64,000 nucleotides of DNA from Escherichia phage EcS1, in sequence record NC_055721.1. One strand, written 5' to 3'. Positions 5,103-45,788 of the stretch are shown here, piece after piece (within the stretch, counting starts at the first letter, position 1; each line of letters begins with the position of its first letter). A model generated the notes under the pieces. It was given only the letters and a program-made list of their open reading frames with translations, was not told where the DNA came from and made no database searches. The translations under genes and the position numbers were made by a program.

Positions 5103-5356
5103 GCAATTACCTCATGCAGTCGAACGATTTTATCAACTAATTGAGAGAAGCCATAAGCATTCATATCATATTCGATGACATCATTCTCGATTTCAGAATT
5201 AAACTCAGCCAACAAATCAATAGCAGGAGTATCAAACAAATGAGAGACTGTGGTTTCCCAAGTTGCTCCTACTAATGTATCAACACTCACTTGGCCATCT
5301 TCGAAAATAGAAATCAGGATATCAAGTTCATCTTCATGGAAATCAATTTTATTCAT
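5099..5356 (-). CDS. hypothetical protein
   Basis: 85-aa ORF, ATGA overlap with neighbours. Confidence 0.45.
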   Translation of the reverse strand: MNKIDFHEDELDILISIFEDGQVSVDTLVGATWETTVSHLFDTPAIDLLAEFNSEIENDVIEYDMNAYGFSQLVDKIVRLHEVIA

Positions 5357-5583
5357 TGTAAGTTCTTAGCGCAATCGTATGCGTCGTCAAATCCACCAAA
5401 AGCATCAACTGAAATATAATTGCCAGTTGTCGTAGCTTCATATACCCAGAAGGCTTCAAAGTCTTCTTCAATTAGATAATCAAGGCCAGCAGGAGATGTC
5501 CCTTCAACTAACACTCGGTCGTCATCAAGTTCTTTAACAAATAGACCAGCTAGTTGCAAGTCCATGATTTCTTGCTTAGTCAT
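5353..5583 (-). CDS. hypothetical protein
   Basis: 76-aa ORF, overlapping start/stop. Confidence 0.45.
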   Translation of the reverse strand: MTKQEIMDLQLAGLFVKELDDDRVLVEGTSPAGLDYLIEEDFEAFWVYEATTTGNYISVDAFGGFDDAYDCAKNLQ

Positions 5584-39190: not shown

Positions 39191-39794
39191 ATTTACGTGA
39201 TTTTTCGTAACGAGCAGCGTCAGCAGCCAGAGTACCAGCGTTGCGAAGCTTATTGCTGATTTCTTTATGCAGAGGCTGAGTATAACGCAAACTTTCAATT
39301 GTTAGATACAGATTGTAAAGGTCTGGAGTTTCAAGGTTGTTCATGTGTTGATTATTACGCAGCTTAGCATATTCACGAACCAGAACGTTAGTTTCACTTT
39401 CAATCTCATTAATCAGTGAAGATAATTGCTTATACTTTTTAACTAATGAAGAAGTATCAAAGTTAAACTTAGGTCCTGCAACTGGTTTAGGAGCTGGCTT
39501 TGCGGCCGCAGGCTTAGGAGCCACAACTGGTTTAGCAACAGGAGCAGACTTAGGTGCTGGAGTTGCTTTTGGAGTTGCTTTAGCAGTACCGCCACCAGCT
39601 ACGATATCTTTAAACGCTTTAGATGCTTTATAATAGTCTTTTTGACTATCAGTACTAAAGCCATACATGTCTTTCACTGCTTTAAAGAACTCTGTAGTGG
39701 TTTTAGTTCCTTTAATCGAATCATAAGCAGCTTGCCACTTGTCTTTAGTCATACGCTCAGTAGCTTCTGAGATGAATTCTTTGAATTTTAACAT
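39189..39794 (-). CDS. internal-protein-like with capsid targeting sequence and Pro/Ala-rich linker
   Basis: 201 aa; N-terminus MLKFKEFISEA (CTS-like); central PA/K-rich low-complexity region. Confidence 0.55.
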   Translation of the reverse strand: MLKFKEFISEATERMTKDKWQAAYDSIKGTKTTTEFFKAVKDMYGFSTDSQKDYYKASKAFKDIVAGGGTAKATPKATPAPKSAPVAKPVVAPKPAAAKPAPKPVAGPKFNFDTSSLVKKYKQLSSLINEIESETNVLVREYAKLRNNQHMNNLETPDLYNLYLTIESLRYTQPLHKEISNKLRNAGTLAADAARYEKSRK

Positions 39795-40119
39795 TTTTGG
39801 TTCCTTTGAATATGAATTAGGTTTATTTTATATTTATCATATTCGTCCAGTGCGCACCGCTTGCTCAGATAGCCCGAAAGGGTCCCACCGAAGTAGAACC
39901 CTTTCAGAAGAATTGACAGCACTACCCACTTGCGGATAGCCTGCAAATGTTCATTTTATTATGCTCGTAGAGGCAAGTCTCACATAATAAAACATAGCGT
40001 CAGGAGGTGTCACTTTGCAGGTGATTAACAACTATGCTCATCCTCGGATAGAACATAGCAACGTAAACGTTCTCTTCTAGACTGACGTCTTATCGTAGGG
40101 TTGCAGCCCTAAACGAAAT

Positions 40120-40195
40120 TGGTGCTGAATGCAGGAATCGAACCCGCGACCTTCTCATTACAAGTGAGCTGCTCTACCTACTGAGCTAATTCAGC
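40120..40195 (-). tRNA. tRNA-Thr (anticodon UGU)
   Basis: 76 nt; perfect 7-bp acceptor stem, canonical D and T arms (TTCGATT), anticodon loop CTTGTAA, encoded CCA. Confidence 0.8.
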
Positions 40196-40199
40196 AATT

Positions 40200-40284
40200 T
40201 GGTGCATCGAGAGGGATTCGAACCCTCAATCCTCGCGGCGTGGCATTTTAAGTGCCATGTGTATACCAGTTCCACCATCGATGC
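40200..40284 (-). tRNA. tRNA-Leu (anticodon UAA)
   Basis: 85 nt class-II tRNA; anticodon arm TGGCA-CTTAAAA-TGCCA, T loop TTCGAAT, CCA encoded. Confidence 0.8.
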
Positions 40285-40288
40285 GAAT

Positions 40289-40364
40289 TGGTCGAGACAG
40301 TAGGGATCGAACCTACGACCTAGGACTTAGAAGGTCCTTGCTCTTCCGTCTGAGCTATGCCCCG
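40289..40364 (-). tRNA. tRNA-Arg (anticodon UCU)
   Basis: 76 nt; anticodon arm AGGAC-CTTCTAA-GTCCT, T loop TTCGATC, CCA encoded. Confidence 0.75.
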
Positions 40365-40537
40365 TCTTTGTATAAACGTTCTAAGTAAACATGCTCCATC
40401 GGTTTAACGATTTCGCCTTGTTTCAATAATTGTGTTTGAATAGGATTCAAATTATAAAATTTGATCACATCTCTGAGATCTTGTTCGCTATAATTAAAAG
40501 TTCCTACTTCTACTCCGATTTGCATAAGTATCCTTTT

Positions 40538-40624
40538 TGGAGCTAGGAGTGAGATTCGAACTCACGAAAGCATAACGCTACTGGATTTGCAATCCAGCGC
40601 CTTTGACCACTCGGCAATCCTAGC
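40538..40624 (-). tRNA. class-II tRNA with anticodon GCA (Ser/Tyr-type architecture, Cys anticodon)
   Basis: 87 nt; perfect acceptor stem GCTAGGA/TCCTAGC, D arm GCC-GAGTGGTCAAA-GGC, anticodon arm CTGGA-TTGCAAA-TCCAG, long variable arm, T loop TTCGAAT, CCA. Confidence 0.65.
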
Positions 40625-40755
40625 AAATGTTCAGGTGGGAGTCGAACCCACACGATTGAAGCCTCTCATCGGGTTACCTCTTACTCAGCTGGGTGCTTAA
40701 ACCAGCGTTTCAAACAGAGTCCGCCAACATGTCTACCGATTCCATCACTGAACAA
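40625..40755 (-). ncRNA. tRNA-like structured RNA, about 130 nt (possible stable-RNA analogue)
   Basis: canonical T arm GTGGG-TTCGACT-CCCAC and 7-bp acceptor pairing, but the ends are about 130 nt apart and no standard anticodon arm was found. Confidence 0.3.
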
Positions 40756-40758
40756 TTT

Positions 40759-40983
40759 TTACATATCTACTTGACAAAACCAGTTCATTTCAAAATATTC
40801 ATCAAAATGTAATGCAGGTTCTACTTGACAATTTTCTTCTAATAAGACCAAATTTCTTCTAACAATAGGGTCTAATGACGTGATGGTCAAAGCACTATCA
40901 TGATAGTAAATCAGAACACGAAGCGAATCTGTATCAACTAAATACCGAACATTCATATCAGGATGTTTGTAGAGGTTAATCAT
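40759..40983 (-). CDS. hypothetical protein
   Basis: 74-aa ORF. Confidence 0.35.
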   Translation of the reverse strand: MINLYKHPDMNVRYLVDTDSLRVLIYYHDSALTITSLDPIVRRNLVLLEENCQVEPALHFDEYFEMNWFCQVDM

Positions 40984-40989
40984 AACATT

Positions 40990-41436
40990 TTATCCTTGAA
41001 GCATTTCACGAACACGATAAAGATTAGAACAGAATTCTTGTTCAGTTAGAACAGTTTCATTCTTTTTATTCTTACCCATGCTATGAGTTAATGTTGAGTT
41101 ACGCGTAGCTAGGAGTGCTCTCTTGAATCCTTCATTCAAAGCCAGAGAATCATATGCTCGCTGAATTAAAGACGTATAGGCTATACTTTGACGTAAAATA
41201 GGGACACCTTTCCAGTACAACGTTTGGGTGCGCCACCAGTTCTTTTTCTTACCTTTGAACTTAGCTTTCTTACCAACTAATGTACAGACATGCTCTTGCA
41301 TTTCTACTGAAGAAAACTTCAATGATTGCAAGAAACCTTCCATTGATGCACACTGTACTCCATCAATTTCGAAAGCATGAGGAGCAAAGTTACTTAATGC
41401 ACAACTTGGGTACATTGAACCTGAACCAATATCCAT
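40990..41436 (-). CDS. NADAR (YbiA-like) domain protein
   Basis: 148 aa; SNFAPHAFEIDG...SMEGFLQSLKF, KRALLATRN, NLYRVREML align with remembered YbiA/NADAR blocks. Confidence 0.7.
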   Translation of the reverse strand: MDIGSGSMYPSCALSNFAPHAFEIDGVQCASMEGFLQSLKFSSVEMQEHVCTLVGKKAKFKGKKKNWWRTQTLYWKGVPILRQSIAYTSLIQRAYDSLALNEGFKRALLATRNSTLTHSMGKNKKNETVLTEQEFCSNLYRVREMLQG

Positions 41437-41527
41437 TATCCATTATTCCTTTGATGATAATAACAGCGTTTACATCGATACCAACCGAAATAATCTTTGT
41501 AGATTATTCTATTGCAGTTGGGACATT

Positions 41528-41782
41528 TCATGCTGGTTCTACCTCAGTCATTGTTGTCCGTTTCAGAACCACACAACCTTCTATTTCAGGGTCTTTCTTA
41601 ACCAGAACTCGTCCAGTAGGCGAAATAAGGCCAGTAATATGATTCAGAGCTTTAGCAGCATCATTGAAGCCATCAGCTTGCATAATCGTTCCGAATGAGA
41701 ACCCTTGATAGTGATTACTAAACTCGTAATAAGCGTATTCTTCACGAATAGGGCAATAAATCACATAATCAACATTCAGCAT
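41528..41782 (-). CDS. hypothetical protein
   Basis: 84-aa ORF. Confidence 0.35.
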   Translation of the reverse strand: MLNVDYVIYCPIREEYAYYEFSNHYQGFSFGTIMQADGFNDAAKALNHITGLISPTGRVLVKKDPEIEGCVVLKRTTMTEVEPA

Positions 41783-42114
41783 AAGTCACCTACACATTGG
41801 AGAGCACGATGGTGTGACCATATTTCTAAAGTCTTTTCGTTGGCTTTATTAATTCGACGAAGGTCATTTAAATTACCTTTAACATATAACCCAAGTTCAC
41901 TTAACAAATGATCGATAGTGAAATAAGAAATATCTCGCAGTGGAGCATAACGGAACTTAATGAAGTGCCATTCATCAAACTCGTTTTTGGTAAACGCATA
42001 ATCAGCATGCATCATGAGTTCGCGAATCGTTTCACGCATCAAAAAGACATTACCGTGATAAGAATCATTTATAGCAACAATATGTGGACCTACACCTAGA
42101 TAGATACGAGACAT
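41776..42114 (-). CDS. hypothetical protein
   Basis: 112-aa ORF. Confidence 0.45.
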   Translation of the reverse strand: MSRIYLGVGPHIVAINDSYHGNVFLMRETIRELMMHADYAFTKNEFDEWHFIKFRYAPLRDISYFTIDHLLSELGLYVKGNLNDLRRINKANEKTLEIWSHHRALQCVGDLC

Positions 42115-42324
42115 AATATTTTCCTCAGTCAGTTTATTCTACATCATATTCAACTACAAGCACTTCTTCATAATCTTCAGGATTAAGAGTTTTAATGTAG
42201 TCTTCTGCTTTTTCTTTACTCGATAGAATCTTTAATGGCTTTGAATATTCATCATATCCATATTCACAGTTAAACTCTGACATAACAACTGCGTATACTA
42301 TCATAATATTTTCCTCATTTGAAT

Positions 42325-42401
42325 TGGTGGCCCTTGTCGGAGTCTAACCGACCTTACACCAGTTATGAGCTGGGCACTTTCACACGAAAGTATAAAGGGC
42401 C
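42325..42401 (-). tRNA. tRNA-like element with CAU anticodon (Met or Ile2), atypical T loop
   Basis: 77 nt; perfect acceptor GGCCCTT/AAGGGCC, anticodon loop CTCATAA, T arm GTCGG-TTAGACT-CCGAC, CCA encoded; 5' end overlaps a terminator hairpin. Confidence 0.5.
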
Positions 42402-42434
42402 ATTATTAAAATATTTTTACTTTAATAATGGCCC
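42397..42434 (-). terminator. rho-independent terminator (14-bp perfect inverted repeat)
   Basis: GGGCCATTATTAAA ... TTTAATAATGGCCC with 10-nt loop; on minus strand followed by TTTATAC; downstream of 42459..42743. Confidence 0.55.
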
Positions 42435-42458
42435 TCTCCGAAGAGAGGACAGAGGGTA

Positions 42459-42743
42459 TTACTTACACATGAACTTAGCAACTTCATCGAAGCTGTTCAA
42501 GATGTAATAAGACTTAGGCGCACTGTATTCAGTAGGTTTAATAGTAATACGTACACGACCATGCAAGTCTTCAACTAATCCAACAACAGCACTTGAACGA
42601 ACAACAGCACGAGCAGTTGTAGGAATCTGACCGGTAGTCAGAGCTTGAAGTTCGGTGTCAATAAGGATTACAATACGTTCAGACATTTTAATTTCCATTT
42701 GTTGTTTCGATGTAGTAATAATAACATGATTATTTTGAAGCAT
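42459..42743 (-). CDS. hypothetical protein
   Basis: 94-aa ORF downstream of promoter copy 4. Confidence 0.4.
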   Translation of the reverse strand: MLQNNHVIITTSKQQMEIKMSERIVILIDTELQALTTGQIPTTARAVVRSSAVVGLVEDLHGRVRITIKPTEYSAPKSYYILNSFDEVAKFMCK

Positions 42744-42750
42744 AACCGTT
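42703..42750 (-). promoter_or_regulatory. early-type promoter-like element (repeat copy 4)
   Basis: minus strand ATGCTTCA...TGtTATTATTACT...CATCGAAACAA. Confidence 0.45.
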
Positions 42751-42801
42751 CAGAGACTAAAAAGCCCAGTACAAGATTTCTCTTGCCCGGGCGTCATTAT
42801 T

Positions 42802-42876
42802 TGGAGCAGCATATCGGACTCGAACCGATGTCGACTGGGTGGAAGCCAGTAATATTAACCACTATACGAATGCTGC
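42802..42876 (-). tRNA. tRNA-Gly (anticodon UCC)
   Basis: 75 nt; anticodon arm ACTGG-CTTCCAC-CCAGT, T arm ATCGG-TTCGAGT-CCGAT, CCA. Confidence 0.75.
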
Positions 42877-42877
42877 A

Positions 42878-42951
42878 TGGCAGGCCCTGTAGGAATCGAA
42901 CCCACGTCGCTGAGGTTGGAGCTCAGAATGATACCACTATACCAAGGACCC
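42878..42951 (-). tRNA. tRNA-Trp (anticodon CCA)
   Basis: 74 nt; anticodon arm CTGAG-CTCCAAC-CTCAG, T loop TTCGATT; D stem weak. Confidence 0.6.
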
Positions 42952-43262
42952 GTTGATTGTACGGAACGCCTGGATTCGAACCAGGTTACAAAGCAGTTGA
43001 CGCTCCTTTGTATTTTGTAAGGCCATCATCTCGACCATATCCGAACGTTTCGTCAAAAACGCTACTCGGCTTATGGCAAAGACAAATCCTCGAACCGATA
43101 ATTGGTGGGAGCTGTTGGTAACGATCCAACCTCTCGAGCTCTTCAGGCAAGCGCTAATCCGTCTCAGCTAAACTCCCAGATCCACAAGAACTTTACAAGC
43201 ATTGCGCTTAACCTTTTCAGGAAGTTAGGGTACTATTTCTAGTCTGTGGTTATCCCTATTTT
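42952..43262 (-). ncRNA. structured non-coding region inside tRNA cluster (tRNA-like fragments)
   Basis: contains a canonical T arm CCTGG-TTCGAAT-CCAGG at about 42967-42985 and several hairpins but no complete cloverleaf was found by eye. Confidence 0.25.
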
Positions 43263-43338
43263 TGGTGGGAATAGCTGGATTTGAACCAGCGACCTATCGC
43301 TTATCGGGCGAGTGCTCTACCAACTGAGCTATATTCCC
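43263..43338 (-). tRNA. tRNA-Ile (anticodon GAU)
   Basis: 76 nt; GGGAATA acceptor, GCTCAGTTGGTAGAGC D arm, anticodon loop CCGATAA, T loop TTCAAAT, CCA. Confidence 0.8.
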
Positions 43339-43344
43339 ATAATT

Positions 43345-43421
43345 TGGTCTCCATATAAGGATTTGAACCTTAGACCTCCTGGCCCCAAACCAGGCGCTCT
43401 ACCAAACTGAGCTACACGGAG
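43345..43421 (-). tRNA. tRNA-Pro (anticodon UGG)
   Basis: 77 nt; anticodon arm CCTGG-TTTGGGG-CCAGG, T loop TTCAAAT, CCA. Confidence 0.75.
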
Positions 43422-43422
43422 A

Positions 43423-43668
43423 TTAATTTATATCAAATATGGTGCCATCTTTCCACATCATTGCGAAAAGAGGTGAAACTTTTGTTAAACGGTGTGCAAC
43501 TTTAACTTGACGGCTAAAACCTTCAATTTGAGCACCATAACCATTTATATCTAATACAAGACCAATATGAACTTTGCCAATATCAGACATACCATTTGAA
43601 GGTAATCCAATCATGACATAATCGTTAACTTCGATTTGTTTACCATATTTGTCAAATAATATCTTCAT
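43423..43668 (-). CDS. hypothetical protein embedded in tRNA cluster
   Basis: 81-aa ORF between tRNA-Pro and tRNA-Ser. Confidence 0.35.
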   Translation of the reverse strand: MKILFDKYGKQIEVNDYVMIGLPSNGMSDIGKVHIGLVLDINGYGAQIEGFSRQVKVAHRLTKVSPLFAMMWKDGTIFDIN

Positions 43669-43693
43669 AATTATTTATTCACCATATTTTAAT

Positions 43694-43787
43694 TGGAGGA
43701 AGCTGTGAGATTTGAACTCACGGAACCTGTCCCCAGGACCTCTAGTTTTCAAGACTAGTGCAATAAACCAGACTCTGCCAAGCTTCC
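43694..43787 (-). tRNA. tRNA-Ser (anticodon UGA)
   Basis: 94 nt class-II; anticodon arm CTAGT-CTTGAAA-ACTAG, long variable arm, T loop TTCAAAT, CCA. Confidence 0.75.
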
Positions 43788-43791
43788 GAAT

Positions 43792-43867
43792 TGGGGTGAC
43801 CTGTGGAATTCGAATCCACGACTACGAGAATCACAATCTCGAGTTCTACCAACTGAACTAAGGCCAC
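43792..43867 (-). tRNA. tRNA-His (anticodon GUG)
   Basis: 76 nt; anticodon arm CGAGA-TTGTGAT-TCTCG, T loop TTCGAAT, discriminator C, CCA. Confidence 0.7.
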
Positions 43868-43967
43868 ATCAATATTCACTCAGCCACTTCGTGCGGACCT
43901 GTCTCGATATTACGTGTAGTGGATTAGCTAGTTCACACCACTATATCGTCTAGAATGAATATTAATT

Positions 43968-44043
43968 TGGCTAGAGCGCTTGGATTCGAACCAAGGAATA
44001 CCAGAATCAAAATCTGGTGTCGTAACCGCTTGACTACGCTCTA
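43968..44043 (-). tRNA. tRNA-Gln (anticodon UUG)
   Basis: 76 nt; anticodon arm CCAGA-TTTTGAT-TCTGG, T loop TTCGAAT, CCA. Confidence 0.75.
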
Positions 44044-44045
44044 AT

Positions 44046-44121
44046 TGGAGGCGAGTGATGGAATCGAACCATCGCGTAAAGGGATATGAACCCTTTATTC
44101 TACCACTGAAGTTAACTCGCT
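44046..44121 (-). tRNA. tRNA-Met (anticodon CAU), initiator-like
   Basis: 76 nt; anticodon stem ends in three consecutive G-C pairs (AAGGG/CCCTT), loop TTCATAT, position 1-72 unpaired (A-C), CCA. Confidence 0.65.
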
Positions 44122-44248
44122 ATTGTCCGGGTTCTCGAAGTAAAAACAAGTAGCTTGATGTAGAACACATAAAGTGGGAACAACTCACTTCATCTCCTAG
44201 CATTATTGTATGGAGACTCAAACTCATCTTCAAGAACTGCTTCGTATT

Positions 44249-44325
44249 TGGCGGACGTGCTTGGACTCGAACCAAGGACCTATCGCTTAACAGGCGACCG
44301 CTCTAACCAACTGAGCTACACATCC
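44249..44325 (-). tRNA. tRNA-Asn (anticodon GUU)
   Basis: 77 nt; anticodon loop CTGTTAA, T loop TTCGAGT, CCA. Confidence 0.75.
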
Positions 44326-44329
44326 AAAA

Positions 44330-44461
44330 TTTACTTTCAGGGTTACTCGAAGCTCTCAAACCTTCCGGAAAGTCGAATAAGCATCTCATCCTCTCAGAAT
44401 CCCGTGCACAGGAAAAATCTTTATTAGGAGGAGACTAAATCAATATAACCCTGAAAGTAAA
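44330..44461. repeat. 16-bp perfect inverted repeat flanking a 100-nt spacer
   Basis: TTTACTTTCAGGGTTA at 44330-44345 and TAACCCTGAAAGTAAA at 44446-44461. Confidence 0.8.
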
Positions 44462-44475
44462 CTTACTTTCGAATT

Positions 44476-44552
44476 TGGTGGGACATCATGGACTCGAACC
44501 ATGGACACCCGGATTAAAAGTCCGGTGCTCTAACCAACTGAGCTAATATCCC
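44476..44552 (-). tRNA. tRNA-Lys (anticodon UUU)
   Basis: 77 nt; anticodon arm CCGGA-CTTTTAA-TCCGG, T loop TTCGAGT, CCA. Confidence 0.8.
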
Positions 44553-45015
44553 ATAGATATTTATCTATAAATCTCTTAGCTTGAGTATGACTTATATTTA
44601 AACTTTTACTAAACTTGGTTAATGCACCTCGTTTAGTAAAATCTATTAAATTATAAGCTTCAATTCTAGAAGCAATTTCTTCTTCAGACAAAACCAAAGC
44701 ATGGTTTTCTGAAATCTTTTTACGAGATTCTGTTGTATGTGACATACCAGTAAAACCAAGAGTAGGTTTTAGTCTACCATTAGCTTTAGCGTCTTGTGCA
44801 TTTTGTTTATTTGTCGCACAATAAATGTTTTCTAATGAATAAGGACCTATATCGCCTTTACGACACATGCAATAATCCAAACTTGCTTTACCACGTAAAT
44901 GATATTTACCTGTTGATTTCCACCAAGTAAACCACTCATCAAAAGTTAGATTAAATTCAATACCACGAGCTTTGGCATGAACTTTTTGCATACGGTACTT
45001 TTCATAATCTTCCAT
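44530..45015 (-). CDS. homing-endonuclease-like protein (NUMOD3-like motif, C-terminal DNA-binding region)
   Basis: start set to ATG at 45013-45015 (MEDYEKY...); GFTGMSHTTESRKKISENH resembles NUMOD3; 3' end reads through the 5' part of tRNA-Lys. Confidence 0.4.
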   Translation of the reverse strand: MEDYEKYRMQKVHAKARGIEFNLTFDEWFTWWKSTGKYHLRGKASLDYCMCRKGDIGPYSLENIYCATNKQNAQDAKANGRLKPTLGFTGMSHTTESRKKISENHALVLSEEEIASRIEAYNLIDFTKRGALTKFSKSLNISHTQAKRFIDKYLWDISSVG

Positions 45016-45030
45016 ACAACTCTCACAAAT

Positions 45031-45106
45031 TGGCAGTGCCGACGGGATTCGAACCCGCATGGTCTCCCGTGACAGGGGAGTATATTACCAAGTCTACCAC
45101 GGCACT
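45031..45106 (-). tRNA. tRNA-Asp (anticodon GUC)
   Basis: 76 nt; anticodon arm CTCCC-CTGTCAC-GGGAG, T loop TTCGAAT, CCA. Confidence 0.75.
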
Positions 45107-45112
45107 ATTGTT

Positions 45113-45187
45113 TGGTACTCTGTAGGAGAATTGAACTCCTCTTCCCAGGTTGAAAACCTGGTGTCCTAACCGATAGACGAACAGAGC
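45113..45187 (-). tRNA. tRNA-Glu (anticodon UUC)
   Basis: 75 nt; D arm TCGTCTATCGGTTAGGACACC, anticodon arm CCAGG-TTTTCAA-CCTGG, CCA. Confidence 0.75.
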
Positions 45188-45195
45188 TAAGAATT

Positions 45196-45284
45196 TGGTG
45201 CACCGAGAAGGACTCGAACCTACGAAGCTCATTACAAGCAGGAGATTTACAGTCTCCACCCTTTGCCACTCGGGTCATCGATGC
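45196..45284 (-). tRNA. tRNA-Tyr (anticodon GUA)
   Basis: about 89 nt class-II; anticodon arm GGAGA-CTGTAAA-TCTCC, long variable arm, T loop TTCGAGT, CCA. Confidence 0.7.
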
Positions 45285-45394
45285 ATTGAAGACGTTATAT
45301 TTTATTTATATCATCGAAATGATATCGTCTTCGGCATGACTTGCTTCATTAGCAAGTCCATGTATTAATAATAACACTTAAAACTTAAAGCATA

Positions 45395-45586
45395 TTACAA
45401 ATCGCCACTTCCAACAACAGTGAATGAAGAATCAACAATTTGGTATTCACCACCACAACTGTAGCCTGATTCATTCTGTTTGGCTTCTACGGTCTTCATA
45501 GCTTCTTCAAGAGAATCGTATTCACCTTCAAGGTCGTTCAGCCCACCACGTGGGTAATAATTGTCCCACAAAAATAATTTATACAT
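45395..45586 (-). CDS. hypothetical protein
   Basis: trimmed ORF. Confidence 0.3.
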   Translation of the reverse strand: MYKLFLWDNYYPRGGLNDLEGEYDSLEEAMKTVEAKQNESGYSCGGEYQIVDSSFTVVGSGDL

Positions 45587-45788
45587 CTTCACGTTTCCAA
45601 GACATATGAATAACAAACAGACCAACAAGTAAAGCTAACATAAAACTACCAATATTTACTAAAGTAGCACCAGCAGCCATACCCATCATAGCGTAGTCCC
45701 ACTTGCCAAGTTCATCTTTAACTTCGTAGTTCTTTTTGAACCAAGTTTTAGCTTTCAAGAACAGTTCATTAACTTTTTGCATTTGCAT
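45579..45788 (-). CDS. small membrane protein
   Basis: trimmed ORF; hydrophobic helix. Confidence 0.35.
   Translation of the reverse strand: MQMQKVNELFLKAKTWFKKNYEVKDELGKWDYAMMGMAAGATLVNIGSFMLALLVGLFVIHMSWKREDV

Follow-up and report, generated by a model that had tools for sequence, protein, structure and literature searches.

A T4-type cluster of 19 tRNA genes in Escherichia phage EcS1, with a predicted class-II tRNA-Cys and other structurally unorthodox tRNAs

The genome of Escherichia phage EcS1 (sequence record NC_055721.1) carries a dense group of tRNA genes between positions 40120 and 45284 of the 64,000-nucleotide stretch analysed here, which is referred to throughout as the 64-kb window. 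The locus is probably a T4-type tRNA/stable-RNA cluster of a Winklervirus-related phage, expanded from 8 to 19 tRNAs and supplementing the tRNA pool of the host. When run on the whole window, ARAGORN called 17 tRNA genes, exclusively on the minus strand and within this interval (those so marked in the list below, from Thr-UGU to Tyr-GUA, with Cys-GCA called at 87 nt). A search with the Rfam family RF00005 at its gathering threshold of 29 bits recovered the identical 17 genes at agreeing coordinates, all above threshold (42.5-72.8 bits, E values of 5e-14 to 1e-5), together with an 18th match, tRNA-Phe(GAA), at 43106-43177 (36 bits, E = 7e-4), which ARAGORN missed. One further tRNA with a CAU anticodon, at 42325-42401 on the minus strand, was called by neither program and was recognised by homology, fold and covariation. 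The cluster thus contains 19 tRNA genes:

45196-45284, minus strand: tRNA-Tyr(GUA), class II, 89 nt, A73-CCA (ARAGORN; Rfam, 42.5 bits)
45113-45187, minus strand: tRNA-Glu(UUC) (ARAGORN; Rfam, 56.9 bits)
45031-45106, minus strand: tRNA-Asp(GUC) (ARAGORN; Rfam, 55.8 bits)
44476-44552, minus strand: tRNA-Lys(UUU), 100% identical to the copy in phage X20 (ARAGORN; Rfam, 72.2 bits)
44249-44325, minus strand: tRNA-Asn(GUU) (ARAGORN; Rfam, 71.4 bits)
44046-44121, minus strand: tRNA-Met(CAU), initiator-like (ARAGORN; Rfam, 44.1 bits)
43968-44043, minus strand: tRNA-Gln(UUG) (ARAGORN; Rfam, 61.5 bits)
43792-43867, minus strand: tRNA-His(GUG), C73, with T at position -1 (ARAGORN; Rfam, 62.9 bits)
43694-43787, minus strand: tRNA-Ser(UGA), class II, 94 nt, U73 (ARAGORN; Rfam, 55.7 bits)
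43345-43421, minus strand: tRNA-Pro(UGG), 93% identical to T4 tRNA-Pro (ARAGORN; Rfam)
43263-43338, minus strand: tRNA-Ile(GAU) (ARAGORN; Rfam, 72.8 bits)
43103-43177, minus strand: tRNA-Phe(GAA), T5-type (Rfam, 36 bits; 100% identical to the annotated tRNA-Phe of phage LC53)
42878-42951, minus strand: tRNA-Trp(CCA) (ARAGORN; Rfam, 48.6 bits)
42802-42876, minus strand: tRNA-Gly(UCC) (ARAGORN; Rfam, 60.8 bits)
42325-42401, minus strand: tRNA-Ile2-like CAU variant, A73-CCA (homology, fold and covariation)
40538-40624, minus strand: class-II tRNA-Cys(GCA), 87 nt, U73-CCA (ARAGORN; Rfam, 59.1 bits)
40289-40364, minus strand: tRNA-Arg(UCU) (ARAGORN; Rfam, 64 bits)
40200-40284, minus strand: tRNA-Leu(UAA), class II (ARAGORN; Rfam, 59 bits)
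40120-40195, minus strand: tRNA-Thr(UGU), 88% identical to T4 tRNA-Thr (ARAGORN; Rfam, 71.6 bits)

These genes occupy three locations (42802-45284, 42325-42401 and 40120-40624) with blocks of small open reading frames (ORFs) between them, and the rest of the 64-kb window gave zero tRNA calls with ARAGORN or Rfam. Collectively the 19 tRNAs cover 18 amino acids, with Ala and Val lacking a tRNA and Ile having a second one, for AUA. The 3' CCA is encoded in all 19 genes, the acceptor and T stems are intact in every one, and the discriminator bases are those expected for the respective identities (U73 in Cys and Gly, G73 in Gln and Trp, A73 in Pro, Leu and Tyr, and C73 in His). The original prediction, which had parsed cloverleaves by hand, proposed about 18 tRNA genes in three locations, all on the minus strand and most with an encoded CCA. 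All 18 of its tRNAs are real: 17 are recovered by both ARAGORN and Rfam, and what it had called a CAU tRNA-like element is borne out by its cloverleaf fold, its homologs and their compensatory changes. The three locations and the strand also hold, while the count rises to 19, as tRNA-Phe(GAA) had been overlooked, and the encoded CCA extends from most genes to all. A permissive Rfam search of 39500-45700 yielded no RNA family other than tRNA; weak matches to YrlA, a plastid UTR and tmRNA sit on tRNA genes and were dismissed as tRNA look-alikes.

The closest relatives are Winklervirus phages (Straboviridae, Tevenvirinae), comprising the Serratia phages LC53, X20 and CHI14/CBH8, the Erwinia phages Virsaitis27 and Gravdalen and the Kosakonia phage Kc304. 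DNA identity to these relatives is approximately 86% in the tRNA region and 80% in the neighbouring baseplate genes, and coverage of the tRNA-region query stays below 80% for every database record. As identity reaches only ~80-86%, EcS1 is, judged from its sequence, a distinct species-level relative of Winklervirus. LC53 and X20 each carry 17 ARAGORN tRNAs at syntenic positions, and LC53 was published with 18 tRNAs, which its authors argue compensate for the lower GC content and the codon usage of the phage (PMC10132071). Because Winklervirus relatives carry the same cluster and that of LC53 has been published, the expanded cluster is an already-described phenomenon in the nearest relatives and the norm for genus-level kin. 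The Winklervirus clusters match that of EcS1 in position, strand and order, have 18 of the 19 specificities in common with tRNA genes that are 85-100% identical, and likewise include a homolog of the T4 stable RNA gene rnaC, a 127-nt tRNA-like RNA and structured spacers. In contrast to them, EcS1 has an extra class-II tRNA-Cys, carries a variant with a 6-bp D stem in exchange for the T4-type tRNA-Ile(CAU), and is missing the rnaD-like segment that lies beside the structured spacer in LC53, while X20 is set apart by a differing gene order and extra ORFs.

Similar correspondence is found with T4, whose tRNA region holds eight tRNAs at the syntenic locus (the number given in the original prediction, correctly) together with rnaC, rnaD and the homing endonuclease gene segB. 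In both phages the locus lies on a single strand, downstream of gene 1/57A/57B and upstream of the e.x genes (the e side), and contains a mobile-endonuclease-like ORF. All eight T4 specificities (Arg-UCU, Ile-CAU, Thr-UGU, Ser-UGA, Pro-UGG, Gly-UCC, Leu-UAA and Gln-UUG) are kept in EcS1, with identities of 88% for tRNA-Thr, 93% for tRNA-Pro and 86% for rnaC. However, EcS1 has 19 tRNAs rather than eight, the gene order differs, and half of the T4 tRNA genes (4/8) are without an encoded CCA versus none (0/19) in EcS1. T4 rnaD itself has no BLAST match in the 64-kb window, and an rnaD-like segment is present in LC53 and in the Enterobacter phage PG7. The latter belongs, like the Cronobacter phage Pet-CM3-4, to the Karamvirus phages, which hold source-like relatives of the EcS1 class-II tRNA-Cys (~85% identity, 32 records), the CAU variant (Pet-CM3-4, 89% identity) and a canonical form of the T5-type tRNA-Phe. 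Their gene order differs from that of EcS1 and they have 19-20 tRNAs; in PG7 the anticodon stem of tRNA-Phe is fully paired and a canonical tRNA-Ile2-like gene stands in place of the variant.

Codon usage was compared between 67 long ORFs of the phage (14,943 codons) and a 13,177-codon sample of E. coli K-12. Relative to E. coli, the phage is enriched in AGA (5.2x), AUA (3.9x), ACA (3.9x), UCA (3.4x), UUA (2.6x), GGA (2.0x), CAA (2.0x) and CCA (1.7x), and these eight A-ending codons are the Watson-Crick codons of the eight T4-type U34/CAU tRNAs. The phage/E. coli ratio is higher for codons that phage tRNAs read by Watson-Crick pairing than for unread codons (Mann-Whitney p = 0.02), and 64.5% of phage codons are readable by phage tRNAs. 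By analogy with T4, the genes are most likely expressed as multi-tRNA precursors cut by host RNase P and 3' nucleases, because they share one strand, encode their CCA ends and are separated by short A/T-rich spacers. Host synthetases would then charge the phage tRNAs, which would add to the host pool. The eight T4-type U34/CAU tRNAs would supply decoding of the A-ending codons overused by this AT-rich phage (37.7% GC), while the eleven additional tRNAs would lower dependence on the host pool, whether in hosts of differing codon usage or where host tRNAs have been depleted or cleaved.

Several observations weigh against a cluster that supplements the host pool in this way. The E. coli K-12 codons are a proxy for the host only, overall usage of read and unread codons shows no significant difference (p = 0.09), and a scan of the window for sigma-70 promoters and intrinsic terminators returned matches at or below the shuffled expectation, leaving no transcription units definable. 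Individual members also depart from the canonical identity rules for tRNAs: tRNA-Phe carries two anticodon-stem mismatches, tRNA-His is without an encoded G-1, and the CAU variant is without the nucleotides that pair the D loop with the T loop, such that the usual lock cannot form. In addition, the G34 tRNAs by which the set exceeds that of T4 (Cys, His, Asn, Asp, Tyr and Ile-GAU) correspond to C-ending codons that are rarer in the phage than in E. coli (UGC 0.38x, CAC 0.33x, AUC 0.59x and AAC 0.81x). Because the phage under-uses these codons, codon bias offers no obvious explanation for the added G34 tRNAs, and the codon-usage compensation put forward in the original prediction is supported for the eight T4-type U34/CAU tRNAs only. 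For the G34 tRNAs, reduced dependence on the host pool is a plausible alternative, and buffering against host tRNA loss is possible.

The main interest of the cluster lies in tRNAs that are conserved despite unorthodox structures, most of all in the lineage to which the class-II tRNA-Cys at 40538-40624 belongs. In this tRNA the acceptor, T and D stems measure 7, 5 and 3 bp, respectively, and the 15-nt variable arm has a stem of 3-4 bp, giving it the variable region of at least 10 nt with its own stem-loop that defines class II. The variable stem covaries among relatives (AGC/GCU, GGG/CCC and GGC/GCC). Both U73 and the GCA anticodon, the major determinants of tRNA-Cys (PMC9976931), are present, and the anticodon loop UUGCAAA with its adjoining stem pairs (GGAUUGCAAAUCC) is the same as in E. 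coli cysT, a class-I tRNA of 74 nt. The two differ at the Levitt pair, which is G15:C48 in EcS1 (C48 being the last nucleotide of the variable region, UUC) versus G15:G48 in cysT, where it is a strong determinant for E. coli CysRS (PMC9976931).

The tRNA-Cys gene is missing from other Winklervirus genomes and is ~85% identical to annotated tRNA-Cys genes in 32 Karamvirus-type genomes; an 87-nt version also occurs in the Caulobacter phage CcrColossus. A pattern scan of IMG/VR found at least 119 matching stretches, and among the matches listed (L010-L128) are 98 GCA tRNAs (~60 unique), 94 of which are longer than 77 nt and 90 of which end in U73-CCA. The variable region alone folds into a hairpin of at least 3 bp in 70% of 60 unique viral relatives versus 19% of shuffled sequences, with loops that are mostly GNRA. 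In bacterial genomes the same pattern was found at no fewer than 120 loci, and almost all of those listed (L129-L248) are in Phycisphaerae/Planctomycetota metagenome-assembled genomes, where it corresponds to a GCA/U73 tRNA of 81-88 nt without CCA that is a single chromosomal gene at 117 of the 120 loci. Going by these sequence patterns, class-II tRNA-Cys occurs both in cells and in many phages.

Textbooks, like recent reviews (PMC4810241, PMC7609411), treat tRNA-Cys as strictly class I, and the only long-arm Cys tRNAs covered by these reviews are of the 8/4 selC* type (PMC5389517). The selC* tRNA-Cys resembles that of EcS1 in its U73, GCA anticodon and long variable arm; however, selC* tRNA-Cys and allo-tRNAs have 8/4 or 9/3 acceptor/T stems and longer anticodon stems (PMC5389517), unlike the EcS1 Cys and CAU tRNAs, both of which are 7/5. 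Membership of the selC*/allo-tRNA group is ruled out for the GCA tRNA and the CAU variant by their 7-bp acceptor and 5-bp T stems. No prior description of a 7/5 class-II tRNA-Cys was found in the literature searched, the coverage of which was incomplete. A mutated tRNA-Leu was also considered, as the gene shares its slot with the tRNA-Leu(UAA) of X20, but the alignment shares mainly the upstream flank and the true relatives are the Karamvirus tRNA-Cys genes. In its D and variable arms, the EcS1/Karamvirus tRNA-Cys looks Tyr-like, and hypothetically class-II Cys may have derived from a bacterial class-II tRNA-Tyr through the changes U35C and A73U. Over the whole sequence, identity of class-II Cys to Tyr from the same contig (0.67) is barely above that to Ser (0.64) and Leu (0.63), in a small sample. 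It is conceivable, although we would place it well short of likely, that the GCA/U73 tRNA represents a widespread and apparently undescribed lineage of 7/5 class-II Cys tRNAs with a short GNRA-capped arm, found in phages of unrelated hosts and on Phycisphaerae chromosomes, perhaps originating from tRNA-Tyr and perhaps escaping nucleases or depletion aimed at host tRNA-Cys. Host tRNA-Cys is class I in enterobacteria and that of the phage is class II, and the phage tRNA might therefore escape such attack.

The best reading of the 87-nt GCA tRNA is a genuine Cys tRNA, with charging by Cys predicted from its identity elements. Charging by SerRS (or LeuRS or TyrRS) owing to the long variable arm, with misinsertion at UGC/UGU codons, would be the alternative. 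SerRS recognises a long variable arm and not the anticodon, and Ser acceptance is predicted for allo-tRNAs that combine a long arm with G73 or U73 (PMC5389517); the tRNA-Ser of EcS1 itself also has U73, and the GCA tRNA has G15:C48 in place of G15:G48. However, its variable stem of 3-4 bp is like that of bacterial tRNA-Tyr and far shorter than that of EcS1 tRNA-Ser, and its acceptor stem has C2:G71 versus G2:C71 in the same tRNA-Ser. Leu and Tyr identities both need A73 and are ruled out by U73, with C35 additionally ruling out Tyr. The major Cys determinants U73 and GCA are invariant in the family, in keeping with the U73-CCA ends of 90 of the 98 listed viral-contig sequences, and the single chromosomal gene in 117 of the 120 listed bacterial loci fits an ordinary cellular tRNA-Cys. 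Non-Cys charging is thus very improbable.

The CAU variant at 42325-42401 (GGCCCUU...AAGGGCCACCA) folds into a four-arm cloverleaf (z = -3.3) and has ~30 homologs in other phage genomes, where it is annotated as tRNA-Ile2 or tRNA-Met or is unannotated. Compensatory changes occur in the acceptor, D and anticodon stems among members from Karamvirus, Kanagawavirus, Aeromonas T4-like and jumbo phages, and the family is rare, with six loci in IMG/VR. Derivation from an E. coli host was ruled out by the absence of any match in the E. coli genomes searched. In EcS1 the variant occupies the site that in LC53 and X20 is held by a canonical CAU tRNA, the ortholog of T4 tRNA-Ile (CAU, reading AUA). E. 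coli ileX, T4 tRNA-Ile, the LC53 CAU tRNA and three members of the variant family all share the GGCCC 5' end, the CUCAUAA loop, C29, G41 and A73. The variant also has C4:G69 and C5:G68, the pairs that let E. coli TilS tell tRNA-Ile2 from tRNA-Met (PMC11947777). Its acceptor stem is 7 bp. In the D arm a 6-bp stem is capped by the tetraloop GUGU and G18G19 is absent, and the T loop (UUAGACU) carries A56; ARAGORN and Rfam miss the gene because of this non-canonical D arm and T loop. A long D stem with a tetraloop is likewise found in allo-tRNAs (PMC5389517). Because AUA is enriched 3.9-fold in the phage relative to the E. coli sample and the 64-kb window has no other decoder for it, the CAU variant is most likely the AUA decoder of the phage.

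Other tRNAs have features of note as well. In tRNA-Phe(GAA), the mismatches of the anticodon stem are U28.C42 and U29.U41, and positions A54/U58 of the T loop are swapped, although the gene is 100% identical in LC53 and Kc304 despite diverging flanks. It is 87% identical to T5 tRNA-Phe over positions 6-66, with the same CUGAAGA anticodon loop and mismatches at the same positions (28:42 and 29:41), but the acceptor stem differs, T5 has two U.U mismatches versus U.C and U.U in EcS1, and the A54/U58 swap is found in EcS1. This kinship suggests that tRNA genes have been exchanged between T4-like and T5-like phages. The tRNA-Met has both features of an initiator, namely an unpaired 1:72 position (AxC in EcS1; UxC in LC53, X20 and PG7) and an anticodon stem with G29-31:C39-41 (GGG/CCC) in all four phages. 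It has U73, not A73, and is the sole AUG-reading tRNA, with an elongator tRNA-Met not present among the 19. The tRNA-His has C73 with T at position -1 in EcS1, LC53 (L001, 4293-4368), X20 (L002, 4680-4755) and PG7 (L003, 2147-2222), and gammaproteobacterial HisRS normally requires G-1. The anticodon stem of tRNA-Lys is CCGGA/UCCGG versus GUUGA/UCAAU in E. coli lysT, such that the pairs C27-G43, C28-G42 and G29-C41 replace the G.U, U-A and U-A of lysT, while the anticodon loop is identical. In PG7 (L003, 1212-1296) and X20 (L002, 5569-5652), tRNA-Asn is called at 84-85 nt versus 77 nt in EcS1, which may reflect an insertion or a mis-call.

Apart from the tRNA genes, the cluster and its immediate flank contain the following features:

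42960-43098, minus strand: homolog of T4 rnaC (species 1 stable RNA) with a tRNA-like 3' domain (86% identity to T4 rnaC over 124 nt; z = -2.7)
40627-40754, minus strand: tRNA-like RNA of ~127 nt, conserved in Winklervirus, Roskildevirus and Marfavirus (L001 ~1749-1880, L002 ~2285-2415, L257-L260)
44327-44464, minus strand: structured spacer RNA of ~140 nt between tRNA-Lys and tRNA-Asn (20-bp closing stem, minimum free energy -48.4 kcal/mol, z = -4.4)
44530-45015, minus strand: ORF of 161 aa between tRNA-Asp and tRNA-Lys, with its stop codon inside tRNA-Lys (phrog_16521, E = 1e-56)
43423-43668, minus strand: ORF of 81 aa (phrog_3358; homolog annotated in LC53)
40990-41436, minus strand: gp30.3-family ORF of 148 aa, within the cluster (PF08010, E = 1.5e-57)
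45303-45310, minus strand: match to the T4 late-promoter consensus TATAAATA, 18 nt upstream of the first tRNA gene (Tyr)

At its N-terminus the 161-aa ORF weakly resembles the HNH endonuclease family phrog_3118 (E = 5e-5 over 31 aa), it has no match in Pfam, and the stretch is 91% identical in LC53, where it is not annotated as a gene; it is a possible degenerate free-standing homing endonuclease of the HNH type. Against Pfam, the ORFs of the cluster gave only gp30.3 and a sub-threshold DUF7336, and the PHROGs families matched lack an assigned function. Two segments are insertions relative to LC53, one at 40365-40537 with a 56-aa ORF adjoining tRNA-Cys and the other at 41437-42392 with four small ORFs (31, 84, 112 and 56 aa) adjoining the CAU variant. 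Their arrangement suggests modular gain of a tRNA along with small ORFs. The late-promoter consensus TATAAATA has five matches in 64 kb, which is not above chance, and only the position of this one is suggestive.

Two other explanations for the expansion were weighed against supplementation of the host tRNA pool. The cluster may have been selected mainly for counter-defence, the phage tRNAs replacing those destroyed by PrrC, PARIS AriB, retron-Eco7 PtuAB or Schlafen-like and colicin-like nucleases, whether through insensitivity or through excess. Phage tRNAs are known to defeat PARIS, retron-Eco7 and PrrC (PMC11464382, PMC11555353, PMC10264068). For example, T5 tRNA-Tyr neutralises retron-Eco7 and a phage tRNA-Lys neutralises PrrC (PMC11555353), T5 tRNA-Lys and tRNA-Tyr act against PARIS and retron-Eco7 (PMC11464382, PMC11555353), and a general proposal to this effect has been published (PMC10264068). 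The remark in the original prediction that large tRNA sets resist anticodon nucleases and tRNA depletion thus has general backing in the literature (PMC11464382, PMC11555353, PMC10264068), while for EcS1 it is an inference only. Among the tRNAs that T4 does not have are Lys, Tyr, His, Asn and Asp, which are poorly explained by codon bias, tRNA-Lys differs from lysT at nucleotide 41, adjacent to the site cleaved by AriB, and the class-II tRNA-Cys and the CAU tRNA with its altered D arm would be structurally unlike host tRNAs. However, tRNA-Lys and tRNA-Cys have the same anticodon loops as their E. coli counterparts, and nucleases that read the loop, such as PrrC, would not be evaded by sequence. 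Differences in the stems are expected from ordinary divergence, so that those of tRNA-Lys are compatible with counter-defence but provide no test of it. Counter-defence is also compatible with codon supplementation and does not exclude it, and as the main driver of the expansion it is possible but not favoured here.

Alternatively, the cluster could be largely evolutionary baggage, shuffled by homing endonucleases and recombination, with several of its members decaying pseudogenes or non-decoding tRNA-derived RNAs. Gene content does vary among close relatives, with EcS1 having gained tRNA-Cys and the 56-aa ORF and having a different CAU tRNA within the EcS1-specific block of small ORFs at 41437-42392, and with X20 differing in order and ORFs. 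An HNH-like ORF lies inside the cluster, as segB does in T4, the rnaC homolog and the 127-nt RNA are tRNA-like yet cannot decode, and tRNA-Phe, with its two anticodon-stem mismatches, reaches 36 bits only. Decay is nevertheless difficult to reconcile with the acceptor and T stems and encoded CCA kept in 19 of 19 tRNA genes, with discriminators that match the expected identities, and with odd members that are conserved across genera with compensatory changes. Even tRNA-Phe has copies of 100% identity in LC53 and Kc304, amid diverging flanks, and shares its mismatch positions with T5 tRNA-Phe. Baggage is therefore an unlikely explanation for much of the cluster, and supplementation of the host tRNA pool is preferred.

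As an ordinary feature of its phage group, the cluster marks the stretch as a Winklervirus-like relative of T4 for annotators. Close relatives that differ by whole tRNA genes, here a gained tRNA-Cys and a different AUA decoder, provide natural experiments on tRNA retention. Three conserved members break the usual rules: the class-II tRNA-Cys, the candidate AUA decoder without the D-loop/T-loop lock and the tRNA-His that lacks G-1. Should these tRNAs be charged and used, they would reveal structural latitude in host synthetases, TilS and the ribosome, and such rule-breaking tRNAs are candidates for nuclease-resistant tRNAs.

The structured RNAs of the cluster are likewise shared with relatives. 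The PG7 counterpart of rnaC is called as a 95-nt 'tRNA-Met' by ARAGORN. The 127-nt RNA retains an intact acceptor stem, T arm and tRNA-Leu-like D arm, with an extended hairpin of ~60 nt in place of the anticodon arm. Compensatory changes occur in 11 of its 21 predicted pairs, including the hairpin; the D and T arms covary as well, and covariation of the acceptor stem is visible by eye. None of the genomes examined has this RNA annotated, and it belongs to no Rfam family. Homology to T4 rnaD was considered and is not claimed, as the alignment shares short motifs only. The 140-nt spacer has no Rfam match and is missing entirely from X20, and is conserved, with compensatory changes in its closing stem, in LC53 (L001, ~5271-5409) and PG7 (L003, ~1400-1540); in the latter two phages it is preceded by the segment resembling T4 rnaD that EcS1 is without. 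Closing stems that bring the flanking tRNAs together are also predicted on the minus strand in the spacer from tRNA-His to tRNA-Gln (43868-43967; 14 bp, z = -2.4) and in that from tRNA-Met to tRNA-Asn (44122-44248; 10 bp, z = -0.8), and these two spacers could be processing sites or further small RNAs.

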